Positions 12,621 to 18,280 are shown, numbered from the stretch's first letter. The stretch is 64,000 nt of DNA from Nitrospinota bacterium (GCA_016212295.1 JACRGO010000237.1:215-64214); one strand, 5' to 3'. Notes: a model not told the origin generated them from the sequence alone. Numbers and translations are program-made.

Positions 12621-12968
12621 ATTCAACCACAAGGCGCGCAAAGCAGGCACAAAGATCACAAACTCGCCCTCGGAAGCAGATCATTGCGATCAAGGGGCTT
12701 TACCACGTAATCATTTGCCCCTAGGGCGAATGCCTTGTCCCTAAGCTCTATATCCGTCACCGAGGTGACCACAATGACATAAGGCTGCCGCCTGTTGAAG
12801 GAGTTTTAAATATCCCATGATGGAGTTGAAAGGTGATCTTAGATCGTGCGCCACCAGGGACACGAATTTGTCCTTCAGCTTTGTGGCCTCCTCCGCGATC
12901 TCCTTGGCTTTTTTCAGGGATTCTTCAGCAAATTTTTCAACCTCTTCTTGGAGCGCGCATTTCCGCAA
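12621..12968 (-). pseudogene. decayed two-component system remnant (HisKA fragment plus receiver C-terminal fragment)
   Basis: A 75-aa ORF (12741..12968) carries the HisKA H-box 'SLVAHDLRSPFNSIMGY'. Another frame at 12660-12760 encodes 'VVTSVTDIELRDKAFALGANDYVVKPL', the C-terminal part of a receiver domain. Multiple stops separate them, and a 'CACAAAG' repeat copy abuts the fragment at 12621-12668. Confidence 0.4.
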
Positions 12969-13000
12969 CTAAAAATAAAGTACAAGAAGGGTGCCAAAAA

Positions 13001-13208
13001 CTAGCCAAAAATATTTGAAATTTTCAAAAAAGGCGCAATGTTTTTTCACGGCCGGAGATACTTACTCGCCTATTCCTAAAATTTATCTCTAATTTTGTCA
13101 TAAAACGTTTCACTTTTTGCCGCCTTTTTGAAATTTCAAATATTTTTGGCTCATTGCCGAAATGAAATGTGCGAGATAAATTCTCAGAATAGGCGAGTAA
13201 GTATCTAA
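13001..13208. repeat. composite intergenic repeat (mosaic of modules shared with 11383-11430 and 32124-32170)
   Basis: Modules 'ctagccaaaaatatttgaaatt', 'gatacttactcgcctattc' and 'aaacgtttcactttttgccgcctttttgaaatttcaaatatttttggct' recur at 11383-11430 and 32124-32170. The modules also appear as inverted copies within the element. Confidence 0.6.
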
Positions 13209-13527
13209 CTTATTGATTTAACAGGAAGTTGAAATTGATATTGCTGCTGGAAATTACGGAAATTTTCAGATAAAACCAATAGGGAAAGATGAACCGCCTT
13301 ACTAGCCGTGGTGAAACGCCTATGCAAATTCTTGCAGGCTTTTGCTAAAACTTGCAGTCAATTTTTTTCGATCTTCAAGAGATCATTGTTTGCGGAGCGA
13401 AGCTGGACAAATCACTAAAATGCGCCTTTTCCTTTCGGCCCAGCTTTGACAGGCCACAAGCCAAGCCTCAATGGTTTTTCCTGACTCTACTTCATCGAGG
13501 CGTCGAAAAGGGACCTTGAAAGACGTT

Positions 13528-15015
13528 CTATTCCCTGATTTGCTGTGACAAAGCCTCCAGCATGGCCTCCGCTTTCTTCTCCGTCTCCTGGAACTCCATC
13601 TCCGGGACCGAATCCGCCACAATCCCGGCGCCGGTCTGGATATATGCCCTGTCCCCTTTCACCACAATAGTTCTTATGATGATATTCAGGTCCATCCTGC
13701 CGTCAAAGCCGATGTATCCCAATGAGCCGGTATAGGGGCCTCTGCGCGTGGGTTCAATCTCATCAATAATCTCCATGCAGCGGACCTTTGGGCAGCCTGT
13801 TATGGTCCCCCCTGGAAAGCAGGCGGAAAGAATCCCGGCAAGCCCCACCCCTTCCCGGAGCATTCCCTTTATATTGGAAACAATATGCCACACGTGGGAG
13901 TAGGACTCCAGGACCATTAACTCGTCCACTTCAACGGTCCCTGGACGGCAGACGCGGCCCAGATCATTCCTCTCCAGATCCACCAGCATCAGATGCTCCG
14001 CCCTTTCCTTTTCATTAAGGATAAGCTCTTCCGAGAGGCGAAGGTCCTTAACGGCATCGCTCCCCCTGGGCCTTGTTCCAGCAATGGGACGAGTGGATAT
14101 GTTTTGTCCATCGACCTTGACCAGCCGCTCCGGCGAGCAGCAGACCAATGAAAAGCCGTCCAACCGCATAAAGGCTGAAAACGGCGAGGGGTTGATTTCA
14201 AAGAGACGCTCGTAAAGGCCAAAGGGATCGCCGTCAAACTCCATTTCCATGCGACGTGATATATTGGCCTGGTAGACGTCCCCTTCCCTTATATAATCCT
14301 TTACCTTTCTCACGCTTTCCTCAAACTCCCAGCGCGTTTGATTGCACCCAAGCCGCTTGGCCGTCCATTTGGACTTCGCGGATTTATTTGAAATATTCGC
14401 TCCGCAGGCATCCTGGATGCGGCCCACGAATTCCCCCAACCGCTCCAGGCCGAATTGATAAGAATTAGAGGAAGGGTCCATCCCCTCCCCTTCCACCAAA
14501 ACCACCGCCCTTGTTATTCCCGATATGTGGTCCATGACAACCATTTCCATGGGAAAGAAAAAAACCATGTCAGGCAGCTCAATGTCATCCGCGGTGGTAT
14601 CAGGCAAATCTTCAATGAAATGGGCCGCGTCATACCCCAAAAAACCCACGCACCCTCCCCAGAAATGCGGGAGAAGGCCGGGACCGCTCCAGGCTTTAAA
14701 ATCAATTGTCTTCTCTAATTCCAGGATCGGGTTGCCTTGTCTCCTGGTTACTGTCCCGTCTCTTTCAATGATTTCGATTTCGTCCTTCCTGCTTTTAATG
14801 ACCTTGAATGGGCGCCCTCCTGTAAAGGAAAATCTGGAGGTTTTTTCAGGACCAGGGCCGCTCTCCAGCAAGAAGGAATAATTCATGCCTGAGTATAGCT
14901 TTTTGTATAGAGAGCGCGGCATTTCCTTTCCGGCATTAATTTCAGTGGAAAAAGGAAGATGAGAGCGCGTTTTTAAGAGAGATTGATTGATGGCTTCGGA
15001 AGAAAATATCATCAA
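13528..15015 (-). CDS. anthranilate synthase component I / aminodeoxychorismate synthase (TrpE/PabB family)
   Basis: 495 aa with the chorismate-binding enzyme core ('[26 protein letters not shown]', '[15 protein letters not shown]', '[15 protein letters not shown]'). Confidence 0.85.
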
Positions 15016-15062
15016 AGAAACAGAAATAGTTAGCCACGGATGTCAGCGGAGCGGCGTAGGCG

Positions 15063-15165
15063 CAACCAAAAGGAAGAAATAACCACAAAGGACACAAAAA
15101 ATTCACAAAGAACACGGAGAAAAAACTTTGCGGTCTTTGTGGCTACTTTGTGCGCTCTGTGGTAA
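15063..15165 (+). repeat. 'CACAAAG' intergenic repeat, copy A
   Basis: About 95 % identical over roughly 110 bp to 18172-18280. It contains direct CACAAAG(G/A)ACAC units followed by inverted CTTTGTG units, giving hairpin potential. Confidence 0.7.
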
Positions 15166-16034: not shown

Positions 16035-16437
16035 GGGCCAACCAATTTTAGATTTAAGATTTTAGATTTGGGATTTTAAATCCCTTCACACAATGACTCA
16101 ATGACCAATGGCTAATTTTCAATTGACAATTGAAAATAACCGAATCCCCTGCCAACCGCTTCCTGATAACTGCCTTTTTCATTACAAATCCGCAACGAGC
16201 GGAATTGGCAAATTCGCAATCCGCAATCCCAAGTTTCCTTGCCCCTTACGCCAGGATTTTAAATCCGGGGATGGTTTTTCCTTTAATTTTATTTTTTTAT
16301 TCTCACACAAAGGCACTAAGCCACAAAGAATCATAACCATTAACCGGGGGCAGTTGTCAGGGTACAGTTATCAGTAAATATCCGGCTTACAACCGCCTTC
16401 CGTTCTCTGCGCCTTTGTGCCTTGGTGTGAGTTATCT

Positions 16438-16710
16438 TTATTCCTCTATCTCCGCCTTGTCCACCAGGACCACCACCTTGTTGTTGCTGGTCTCAAGGAA
16501 GCCGCTCTGGACCCTTACCGTGACGGGAATCAGGTCGCCCGCCTTGCGGATCTCGATCTTGCCCGGCTTAAGGCTGGTCAGCAAGGCCGCATGGTTCGCG
16601 AGGATGCCAAGGTATCCCTCCTTGCCGGGGGCGGTGACGCTTACCACGTCTTCCCTGTACACGACCTTTTGCGGGGTGATTATTTCCAACTGGAATTCTT
16701 TTTCGTTCAT
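16438..16710 (-). CDS. atpC: F1Fo ATP synthase epsilon subunit
   Basis: 90 aa. It has the conserved N-terminal beta-sandwich ('LEIITPQKVVYREDVVSVTAPGKEGYLGILANHAALLTSLKPG') and sits immediately downstream of atpD. Confidence 0.9.
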   Translation of the reverse strand: MNEKEFQLEIITPQKVVYREDVVSVTAPGKEGYLGILANHAALLTSLKPGKIEIRKAGDLIPVTVRVQSGFLETSNNKVVVLVDKAEIEE

Positions 16711-16711
16711 A

Positions 16712-18109
16712 TTATCCCTTCATCGCCTTGGCCTTCTCGATCACTTCGTCGATGCCGCCCACCATGTAGAACGCCTGCTCTGGAAGATCGTCGTGCTTGC
16801 CCTCCATGATCTCCTTGAAGCCCCTGATGGTCTCGGAGAGGGTGACGTATTTGCCGGGGGTACCGGTGAATTGCTCGGCCACATGGAAGGGCTGTGACAG
16901 GAATTTCTGCACCTTCCTGGCCCGTGAAACGGTCAGCTTGTCCTCGTCCGACAATTCCTCCATTCCAAGGATGGCGATGATGTCCTGCAAATCCTTATAC
17001 TTCTGCAAAAGCTGCTGAACGGCGCGGGCGGTGTTGTAGTGGTCGTCCCCGATGATCCTGGGGTCCAATATCCGCGAAGTGGAGTCCAGGGGATCCACCG
17101 CCGGATAAATACCTAGTTCCGCGATCTGCCTGGAGAGAACGGTTGTGGCGTCAAGATGCGCGAAAGTCGTTGCCGGGGCGGGGTCGGTAAGATCGTCCGC
17201 AGGGACATAAATCGCCTGCACGGAAGTGATGGACCCCTTCTTGGTGGAGGTGATCCGCTCCTGCAACGCGCCCATCTCCGAGGCAAGGTTCGGCTGGTAT
17301 CCCACGGCGGAGGGCATTCTGCCAAGAAGGGCCGACACCTCTGACCCCGCCTGCGAGAAACGGAATATGTTGTCAATGAAAAGAAGCACGTCCTGGCCCT
17401 TCACGTCGCGGAAGTACTCGGCTTGGGTCAATGCGGTGAGCCCCACGCGGAGGCGCGCTCCGGGCGGCTCGTTCATCTGTCCGAACACAAGGACCGCCTT
17501 GTCGATAACGCCGGATTCCTTCATTTCGTTCCAGAGGTCGTTTCCTTCCCTGGTCCTCTCGCCCACGCCCGCGAACACGGAGAGACCGCCGTGGTGCTTG
17601 GCGATGTTGTTTATAAGCTCCATGATCAACACGGTCTTGCCGACGCCCGCGCCCCCGAACAGTCCAACCTTTCCGCCCTTGGCGTAAGGCTCAAGAAGGT
17701 CAACGACCTTCAGCCCGGTCTCGAAGAGCTGGTTGGCCGATTCCTGCTCCTCGAAGGAGGGAGGGTTTCTGTGGATAGGGAACCTGAGTTCTGAATCCAT
17801 TGGCCCCAGGTTGTCGATCGGGTGGCCGAGGAGGTCGAACAGCCTGCCTAAACTCTTTTCCCCCACAGGCACTGTGATGGGCGCTCCGGTGTCTATTGCC
17901 TCCATCCCGCGGACCAAGCCGTCGGTGGATGACATGGAAATGGAGCGCACGGTGTTGTCGCCCAGATGCTGGGCCACTTCCGTGACCAGCTTGATGTTTC
18001 GCGCCGGGTCTTCTATGGTGATGGCTGTGTAGATTTGCGGCAAATTCTTTGACGGGAAGACCACGTCAACCACGGGACCGATAACCTGGGATATTGTTCC
18101 TTTATTCAA
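16712..18109 (-). CDS. atpD: F1Fo ATP synthase beta subunit
   Basis: It has Walker A '[15 protein letters not shown]' and the 'DELSDED' motif. The ORF-track start at 18226 adds a non-conserved 39-aa extension. A TTG at 18109 is preceded by GGAGG 6 nt upstream and gives the canonical '[16 protein letters not shown]' N-terminus. Confidence 0.9.
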
Positions 18110-18171
18110 GGCGGACCTCCTTTTAAAACATGAAAAAGTTGTTAAGCATGAATTCCATGGCGCGGCATGGC

Positions 18172-18280
18172 CGCGACCAAAAACAAGAAATAACCACAAA
18201 GAACACAAAAAATTCACAAAGGACACGGAGAAAAAACTTTGTGATCTTTGTGCCTACTTTGTGCGCTTTGTGGTAAAAAT
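18172..18280 (+). repeat. 'CACAAAG' intergenic repeat, copy B
   Basis: Near-identical to 15063-15165. It lies between the embedded 111-aa ORF and the atpD start. Confidence 0.7.

Follow-up and report, generated by a model that had tools for sequence, protein, structure and literature searches.

The window considered here, a stretch of 64,000 nucleotides (nt) from a Nitrospinota bacterium (GCA_016212295.1 JACRGO010000237.1:215-64214), carries a dispersed palindromic repeat built of the heptamer CACAAAG and its variants, the closest copies of which lie between positions 12,626 and 18,286. The genes of this region lie on the minus strand and, in the direction of transcription, follow the order atpA, atpG, ORF111, atpD, a short atpC, a DUF5618 gene and trpE. 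Copy A of the repeat is found between the DUF5618 gene and trpE and ends 48 nt before the first possible trpE start, and copy B is found between ORF111 and atpD, inside the atp operon, with 63 nt separating it from the TTG start of atpD, which agrees with a first-pass annotation of the sequence that had set two copies just upstream of gene starts. CACAAAG occurs 22 times in the window compared to 8.3 +/- 2.8 times in shuffled sequence, a count of 22 being reached in none of 100 shuffles, and most occurrences are concentrated in a few intergenic clusters. The copies on which the argument depends, and the block in which one of them arrived, are the following.

15048-15175: copy A, full repeat unit, with its hairpin core at 15082-15162 and a GC-rich side module at 15048-15068 (GCGTAGGCGCAACCAAAAG); identified by alignment, by fold and by 87 bits with covariance model R1 (described below)
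18159-18286: copy B, full repeat unit, with its hairpin core at 18193-18273; identified by alignment, by fold and by 94 bits with model R1
12626-12662: copy C, one arm only, reading CCACAAGG CG CGCAAAG CAGG CACAAAG AT CACAAA; 86% identical to the right arm of B
18146-18394 (-): insertion of 249 bp comprising a second element (element X), copy B and 13 further nt; absent from the related contig L146

Structure and insertion of the repeat

Copies A and B align without gaps at 113 of 128 positions (88%) and at 75 of the 81 positions of the hairpin core (93%), so the identity of about 95% first proposed was slightly high for what are indeed close copies; the loci are those first named, with a repeat unit that is about 25 nt longer at the left. 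The two share words, spacers, loop, side module and a 25-nt flank. Each arm is 37 nt long and contains four CACAAAG-type words spaced by 2, 4 and 2 nt, in the layout CCACAAAG-NN-CACAAAR-NNNN-CACAAAG-NN-CACGGAG, followed by a loop of 6 nt and an inverted series that finishes in CTTTGTGG. The direct words followed by inverted CTTTGTG words had been credited with stem-loop potential, and both copies do form long interrupted hairpins in which word pairs with word while the 2- and 4-nt spacers stand opposite each other as internal loops. On either strand their folding energy is -32 to -37 kcal/mol, with z-scores between -5.0 and -7.1, and none of the shuffled sequences was equally stable. The units are 128 nt long, non-coding, AT-rich and situated between called genes, which is within the size limit of 500 bp for a miniature inverted-repeat transposable element (MITE), and their word-to-word pairing supplies inverted repeats at the level of the hairpin.

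Copy C, first described as a partial inverted copy abutting a decayed receiver-domain fragment, is just that: a single arm with the spacers of B (CG, CAGG and AT), broken exactly at the loop edge and running into the stop codon of what is left of the C-terminal part of a receiver domain (Response_reg profile positions 69-108, 30.3 bits), beside which a HisKA remnant lies in another reading frame. Because words, spacers, loop and side module are common to the copies, A, B and C are descended from one sequence. The GC-rich module (consensus ~GCGnAGnCGCRACCAAAAR), present on one side of the hairpin in A (15048-15068) and B (18159-18179), also occurs next to family copies in a sister genome (L131, ~8225-8260), in an Acidobacteriota metagenome-assembled genome (MAG; L106) and in a groundwater contig (L145, ~3660-3680).

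Copy B arrived by recent insertion. The contig L146, with 94% DNA identity over atpG-ORF111-atpD, is without exactly window positions 18146-18394, a clean gap of 249 bp; its empty site reads TGA-TTAAC-AAT, where the window reads TGATTA/TTAACGG...CATGCTTA/ACAAC, the slashes marking the junctions. The spacer between ORF111 and atpD measures 32-71 nt in five more distant relatives (L129-L133) compared to 285 nt in the window, and one further contig, L128, stops 59 nt beyond ORF111, short of the position of B. As B is absent from a strain 94% identical, it is not required by atpD. The trinucleotide TAA stands on both sides of A and of B, possibly as part of the palindrome. Filled and empty sites are also seen in Bacteroidales, in which a hairpin site downstream of purE is filled in L136 and L137, empty in L135 and decayed in L134. 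The hairpin of the Bacteroidota MAG JAAFHL01 lies inside a larger repeat with target duplications of 9-11 bp, and the hairpin may therefore sometimes be a passenger. Element X, which accompanies B at 18289-18397, is 109 nt long and has inverted ends of 15 nt (TTATTAACNGTCTCA, 1 mismatch) around a GC hairpin and a T-run; a weaker third match to its end motif lies at 60535-60549.

Further relatives of the repeat are present in the window:

16302-16431: copy D, an older relative; hairpin of 130 nt that follows the atpC stop immediately, its 60-nt loop enclosed by arms of CACAAAG, CACCAAG and CGCAGAG words, an addition to the first-pass annotation
19671-19706: CGCAAAG word array in the atpA-atpG spacer; three direct words and one inverted partial word
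24766-24905: degenerate CACGAAG / CTTCGTG-CTTTGCG-CTTTGTG words, then a direct TTCGTG array; 9 bits with model R1
53608-53694: weak relative with CACGAAT/CACGAAG words and a partial inverted arm; 25 bits, E ~1e-4 with model R1
56896-56927 (+): direct-only array GGCACAAAG GGCACAGAG GGCACAAAG GCAGAAAG, period 8, likewise an addition

The three sites formerly listed as diverged versions all hold arrays of related words, but a relationship to the covariance model is detectable for 53608-53694 only. The atpA-atpG spacer that holds the CGCAAAG array is 97 nt long, compared to 3-22 nt in relatives.

The small genes adjoining A and B raise the question of whether these copies are attC-type cassette recombination sites, placed 3' of small mobile genes (DUF5618, ORF111 and the GxxExxY genes treated below) and acted upon by a tyrosine recombinase. 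Each does lie just 3' of a small gene, and each is an imperfect palindrome with unpaired spacers, to which GGTTAA-type ends are added in many copies. ORF111 (18395-18730, minus strand; 111 aa) begins 2 nt past the atpG stop and gave no match in Pfam or NCBIfam; six homologs of 104-119 aa were found in 5.8 billion proteins (L129, L130, L131, L132, L133 and L146), and all that can be placed sit between atpG and atpD. Conserved as part of the atp operon in every relative, whether B is present or not, ORF111 was rejected as cargo of the element. The DUF5618 gene (15252-15635, minus strand) has homologs of 77-89% identity at non-syntenic loci and in its behaviour resembles a mobile cassette carrying a small gene: the homolog in L143 has on either side direct repeats of ~60 nt in which a GGGG...CCCC hairpin is found, and the one in L145 is followed by the side module and nested word hairpins. 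Although this recurrence of gene, module and hairpin would suit a cassette, a related hairpin follows in only one of the two other loci, and the gene was rejected as cargo despite its mobility. The ends of A and B (ATAACC...GGTAAAAA) differ from the attC core site GTTRRRY, most copies elsewhere stand beside housekeeping genes, and the window contains no cassette array and no integrase among the ~24 open reading frames (ORFs) scanned, intI not having been searched for systematically. An attC-type origin is accordingly very improbable.

Two further properties of this operon deserve mention. The atpC of genomes bearing ORF111 encodes only ~90 aa, corresponding to the N-terminal beta-sandwich domain alone, and L132 (100-400) and L133 (1-400) appear, from a reading of the translation only, to have a HicB-like/HicA-like pair between atpG and ORF111. 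If that placement holds, small accessory genes have repeatedly settled in the atp operon of this lineage.

Distribution of the family and its association with GxxExxY genes

The family was sought with the pattern CCACAAAGNNCACAAANNNNNCACAAAG, which has 21 specified bases and was matched exactly, on both strands, against contigs of one genome per species (596 Gb). At least 119 loci were found where ~0.3 would be expected by calculation from chance, in at least about 89 assemblies as counted by contig prefix, the majority belonging to Bacteroidota and most being MAGs. The broad taxa represented include Desulfobacterota and Chloroflexota, and the other carriers identifiable by name are Ignavibacteria/Melioribacteraceae, Acidobacteriota, Desulfobacterales, Anaerolineae/Thermoflexus, Puniceicoccales/Chthoniobacterales, Gemmataceae, Calditrichia, Cloacimonadota, Fibrobacteria, Neomarinimicrobiota, Abditibacteriia and two proteobacterial MAGs. 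Cultivable carriers include Flavobacterium aquatile, Alkalitalea saponilacus and Saccharicrinis. Archaea are represented among the matches listed by three independent MAGs of Methanotrichaceae; at one such locus (L020), the flanking genes encode a DGGGP synthase and an archaeal-type glutamyl-tRNA synthetase (gltX), each above its curated cut-off, which makes mis-binning unlikely. The word design C-R-C-R-R-A-G (R, purine) is thus shared by twelve or more bacterial phyla and by Methanotrichaceae. With this many carriers and a conserved hairpin design, the family is clearly neither confined to the window nor lacking in structural conservation, the two findings that had been named in advance as fatal to its recognition.

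Conservation extends beyond the pattern itself, to a T-run and A(A) before CC (a TTTAA flank) and to a fourth CACAAAG word, the two being present at 60-80% and the word itself at 60-70%. The inverted arms of three to four C-R-C-R-R-A-G heptamers with 2/4/2 spacing and the ends (T)nA(A)CC...GG(T)T(A)n that characterize the family are all found in A and B. About half of the arms among the matches listed belong to compact hairpins, with a partner arm within 60 nt, and the compact copies lie in co-directional (26), convergent (11) and divergent (7) contexts. Whole-hairpin identity to B by blastn is 73-79% in Marinifilum, Abditibacteriia and Saccharicrinis. Model R1 is a covariance model constructed from 11 copies of other phyla together with A and B, so that the scores of the latter two are partly circular; it recognised 74 elements in 675 kb of pattern loci, and one more in L131, from a relative of the window organism.

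Several searches were negative. Viral contigs scanned with the family pattern yielded no match, and hence no sign of carriage by phages, while the 8 matches obtained from metagenome contigs with the A/B loop were all unrelated or built of other words. Rfam gave no match to the copies at the gathering threshold, the only one in the window being to Acido-Lenti-1 elsewhere, and at E<=5 A and B gave only sub-threshold chance matches to miRNA and plastid models. The open-access literature that could be searched, as distinct from subscription journals and ISfinder, which were outside the scope of the search, contains no description of the element and no link between GxxExxY proteins and a repeat. 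The dispersed palindromic repeat of the window is itself an ordinary kind of object; the breadth of the family and the association described next appear to be undescribed.

A single protein family recurs among the neighbours of the repeat, an association that, like the spread across phyla, goes beyond the first-pass annotation. PDDEXK_3 accounts for 5 of 52 complete small neighbours, and four more that are cut or frameshifted, among the matches listed; the other neighbours are ordinary housekeeping genes, such as those for GrpE, TrmD, NDK and PCMT. One paper (PMC3424549) lists the family without a known function and with repeated transfer between Bacteria and Archaea. The protein of L066 matches TIGR04256 ('GxxExxY protein') and PF13366, and all seven PDDEXK_3 ORFs within the 119 listed loci adjoin arms. 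Arms enclose the gene in L066 (Bacteroidales), L041 (Acidobacteria) and L076 (Methanothrix), and in L022 and L054 (Saccharicrinis and a Cytophagaceae MAG) it abuts arrays of up to nine complete hairpins. An orthologous locus, consisting of purE, one gene and then GxxExxY, has arms in five of five Bacteroidales genomes; all words of an arm there share one variant, either CGCAAAG or CACAAAG, and the second hairpin site downstream of purE has the word flavour of the GxxExxY arms of the same genome.

As a check independent of the pattern, GxxExxY genes were drawn from plasmid and chromid records by tblastn, and four of the five carry words of the C-R-C-R-R-A-G class: CACAGAG in Bernardetia and Bacteroides finegoldii, CGCAGAG in Gemmatirosa, where they form two complete hairpins, and CGCGAAG in Sphingomonas, where only the left side has them. 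The remaining gene, from Prevotella, has different words. These plasmid and chromid genes sit between co-directional housekeeping genes, as in fabD-GxxExxY-fabG. No transposase adjoins any of 125 arms. The GxxExxY/PDDEXK_3 family is very large, with over 8000 scored relatives close to a single query, and no solved structure is detectable for it by sequence.

Conserved words and competing explanations

Comparison of the two arms of the elements reveals a match of ~90% in the words and of ~25%, the random level, in the spacers. Six copies in one Bacteroidales MAG display only 3 changes in 168 arm positions outside the search pattern (~2% in the words), and the same copies differ at about half (~45%) of their spacer positions and have loops that cannot be aligned; such sharing of words only suggests that the words are under selection or evolve in concert. 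In an alignment fitted to model R1, with each element counted on both strands, so that the statistics are indicative only, 91.7% of cells are paired compared to 89.8% after shuffling, the columns hardly varying. Changes on both sides of a pair number 82 cells compared to 23 in shuffled data, mainly from A-U to G-C at word position 2 (CGCAAAG with CTTTGCG). The central word position is unpaired in ~20% of cells, and in L022 whole arms differ systematically from their partners, as in CACAAAG against CTTGGTG. The words recur with a mean period of 10 nt (9 and 11 in alternation), about one helical turn, which would place the words on one face of B-DNA. Judged from these alignments, the heptamer sequence is the conserved object, with pairing seemingly in large part its consequence. 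The words appear to behave like protein-binding sites, since they are constrained in sequence, lie about one helical turn apart and have a genome-specific flavour that changes in concert, and we infer that this is better supported than a pure constraint on RNA pairing.

The explanation favoured here, with moderate confidence, is that A, B and the truncated C are a non-coding hairpin repeat of ~130 bp that spreads by intergenic insertion, a selfish element resembling MITEs and repetitive extragenic palindromes (REPs) and bearing protein-binding words. The heptamers would be bound by a trans-acting protein, most plausibly the nuclease-like GxxExxY protein, which may maintain or mobilise the repeats in the way that REP-associated tyrosine transposases (RAYTs) do for REPs and for the hairpins that these form (REPINs), and the copies of the window would be solo derivatives. 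They would be co-transcribed with the trpE leader and the atp operon as an RNA hairpin of about -36 kcal/mol, with a probably modest effect on the stability or processing of the neighbouring transcripts.

A number of observations weigh against this explanation. The 249-bp block that brought B is composite (X and B) and without terminal inverted repeats of its own, and the direct repeat that bounds it is only 3-5 bp long and ambiguous in length (TTA, or TTAAC offset by 3 nt); of the MITE insertions initially suggested, the insertion of a dispersed repeat is borne out by the empty sites, but status as a classical MITE is not established. The window has no GxxExxY gene detectable by tblastn and no transposase among the ~24 ORFs scanned, and the GxxExxY locus downstream of purE is vertically inherited across its clade, so that it has not moved recently. 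Sharing of words only, as seen among the copies of some genomes, is not expected from a simple copy-and-paste burst. In A, in D and in the CGCAAAG array the folded sense (minus) strand is at least as stable as the antisense strand, and more so by 13 kcal/mol in D, which is compatible with constraint at the RNA level. Orthologous atp spacers hold unrelated word hairpins, with CAATGAC words in the window and TACTG, GGTTCAA and TAGATTT words in L129 and L131, and a hairpin there could perhaps be functionally wanted. Finally, the window is full of other word arrays.

Several of these points are those expected if the repeats were RNA structures selected by the host, namely RNase III-type processing sites, 3'-end stabilisers or attenuators, in which the words merely build a stem. 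All copies in the window lie in spacers of co-directional operons and would be transcribed, and the sense-strand preference, in which G.U pairs replace A.C mismatches, the different word hairpins at the atp spacers of relatives and the covariation noted above would all follow; the arms around a GxxExxY gene would then make a long-range stem about an ORF, as in rRNA intervening sequences. Such a role nevertheless seems unlikely, given that it is sequence rather than pairing that is conserved, with central mismatches and whole arms departing from their partners, that compact copies also occupy convergent and divergent contexts, that atpD does without B in a close strain, and that Rfam offers no match. 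In the family consensus the hairpin is preceded by a T-run and followed by an A-run, opposite to the arrangement of an intrinsic terminator, and on these flanks a terminator reading was rejected for the family, whose stems are A/U-rich and interrupted; A and B themselves do have a U-rich tail on the sense strand, yet were not called by a terminator scan. Among co-directional compact copies (L001-L119), the arm with exact CACAAAG words is 5' on the sense strand in 15 and 3' in 3, a polarity that makes the arm mismatches A.C on sense RNA and G.U on antisense RNA, with A and D of the window being opposite. A strand test of fold energy for RNA-level selection was discarded, as it is confounded by the choice of arms with exact A/C-rich words, and the 15:3 bias is not taken as evidence.

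A related proposal, that each copy is an independent gene for a small RNA (sRNA) with a discrete regulatory transcript, could draw on the stable fold and on a sigma-70-like match (TTGCAA-17-TAAAAT) located on the minus strand immediately upstream of A. The 11 promoter-like sites of the region are no excess over the 7.4 +/- 2.9 of shuffled sequence, the copies are palindromic on both strands and without an Rfam match, and the loops, the likely seeds, are not conserved between copies in other genomes; the sRNA proposal is hardly credible.

The helical period, the retention of words while spacers drift and the genome-specific flavour are also what would be expected of binding-site arrays for a chromosomal protein, either nucleoid-associated or a global regulator, as Aklujkar et al. 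proposed for the same architecture in Geobacter metallireducens (PMC2700814). Other inverted word arrays of the window likewise flank genes at a distance: those at 29488-29532 and 31941-31975, made of AGCCCTT/GCCTTTC-type words, are 32-34 nt long and 82-91% complementary, and they enclose a 2.4-kb gene pair encoding a DUF2142 membrane protein and a TPR/SH3 protein. The neighbours of the repeat, however, are unrelated housekeeping genes without the logic of a regulon, copies are gained and lost between close strains, and the patchy spread across phyla and domains would need a horizontally mobile binding protein. As an account of its own this one is improbable, more so than host-selected RNA structure, and it overlaps with the favoured insertion of a word-bearing repeat if the binding protein is GxxExxY. 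Resemblance to a DnaA box (TTAACCACA compared to TTATCCACA, 8/9) is confined to the outermost word in a family that is also archaeal, and was set aside as a probable coincidence.

The remaining features of the window stand apart from the CACAAAG family. Many other intergenic, direct-then-inverted repeats of 7-8 nt words occur at 2564-2714, 16045-16133, 16187-16229, 21233-21363, 37195-37221, 41473-41585, 56976-57006 and 61638-61700, and the words of these other arrays include TTTGAAA/ATTTGTA, AGATTTT, CGCAATC, CAATGAC, AACTGTA, GTTCAGG and CTTCGTC. A separate repeat family is found at 11356-11436, 12996-13208 and 32119-32174 in direct and inverted copies of 31-71 nt with 80-100% identity, exemplified by AAATTCTCAGAATAGGCGAGTAAGTATCTAA, which is exact at two sites. 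The Acido-Lenti-1 RNA at 28245-28290 (49 bits), the sole Rfam match of the window above gathering score, lies between a CopG-antitoxin-like gene (27850-28128) and, on a reading of the translation, a HicA-/HicB-like pair (28341-28792). Four tandem repeats of 102 nt (63414-63923; 60-80% identical) are located inside a TPR-like ORF at the window edge.

Relation to known systems and significance

The nearest working analogy is the REP/REPIN system with its RAYTs, in which extragenic, clustered palindromes are accompanied by a cognate nuclease gene that is flanked by repeats and vertically inherited (Bertels and Rainey 2011, PMC3116915; PMC3337134). By analogy with that system, the CACAAAG family comprises short extragenic imperfect palindromes, forming hairpins of ~100 nt that are dispersed between genes and inside operons and are clustered, and it includes a small nuclease-like gene flanked by repeats of genome-specific type in a vertically inherited locus. 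Membership nonetheless fails on the defining features. The gene flanked by arms encodes a PD-(D/E)XK-type GxxExxY protein (TIGR04256/PF13366), with a putative activity on the repeats, rather than an HUH/Y1 transposase; in place of two palindromic REP units, the arms are heptamer arrays whose spacers are free; the 5' GTAG tetranucleotide is missing from the flanks, which have the consensus TTTAA-CC; and the family spans many phyla and an archaeal family where RAYTs are mostly proteobacterial.

Bacterial MITEs, for example the Correia elements and those derived from IS630 and IS5, offer a second comparison. The repeats resemble them in being small, non-coding and multiple within a genome, with inverted arms, insertion polymorphism and truncated copies, and in one MAG the unit that carries the hairpin has target duplications of 9-11 bp; they differ in that no autonomous transposase-bearing partner stands beside the 125 arms and that internal sequence is unshared in some genomes. 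The intervening sequences of Leptospira and Coxiella 23S rRNA are RNase III processing stems around a small ORF. There too, a small gene from a large paralogous family that has spread horizontally is enclosed by inverted repeats within a housekeeping transcript, whereas the CACAAAG family is hosted by protein-coding operons and most of its copies are gene-free.

Among heptamer repeats, the STRR repeats of cyanobacteria are comparable. The TAACTGA repeats provide a precedent for a heptamer found across phyla with no known mechanism of spread (MacGregor 2015, PMC4679880). Both consist of a specific heptamer locally repeated in intergenic DNA and patchily distributed in unrelated phyla, including Bacteroidetes, but they run head to tail with a period of 7, in direct orientation only and without hairpins or spacers. 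Closer in architecture are the paired tandem hepta- and octanucleotide repeats of Geobacter metallireducens, described as putative binding sites of a global regulator or of IHF/HU (Aklujkar et al. 2009, PMC2700814). There, an array of three to five tandem words on one strand is paired with its repetition on the other strand, the distance between the two being variable, in intergenic positions that include the proBA operon, and the same spacer has differing repeats in sister species. Their words are different (GTTGCTYN, TCTCCGTS and MTYCTGA), they are reported from one genome, and neither a link to a gene family nor evidence of insertion is reported for them.

A tentative extension of the favoured explanation, possible but doubtful at present, is that C-R-C-R-R-A-G palindromes and GxxExxY proteins form one system, analogous but unrelated to REP/RAYT. 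Heptamer arrays, whether in duplex form or folded into a hairpin, would be the target recognised by the small PD-(D/E)XK nuclease, which would copy, maintain or homogenise them genome-wide, and the unit of gene and repeat would move horizontally between phyla and into Methanotrichaceae. Such a system would explain the genome-specific flavour, the concerted change of the words in an arm and the presence of GxxExxY genes inside housekeeping operons.

For annotation and assembly, these elements are relevant in that they break short-read contigs (as in L128) and sit in essential operons (atp, fab and trp). GxxExxY proteins, which have no known function, are now tied to a recognisable repeat, and this gives a direct handle on whether they bind or cut hairpins of CACAAAG words. 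If the one-system proposal is true, it would constitute a second and mechanistically different partnership of a nuclease with a palindrome, one that crosses the boundaries of phylum and domain, and it would offer an explanation for the as yet unexplained paired heptanucleotide repeats of Geobacter.

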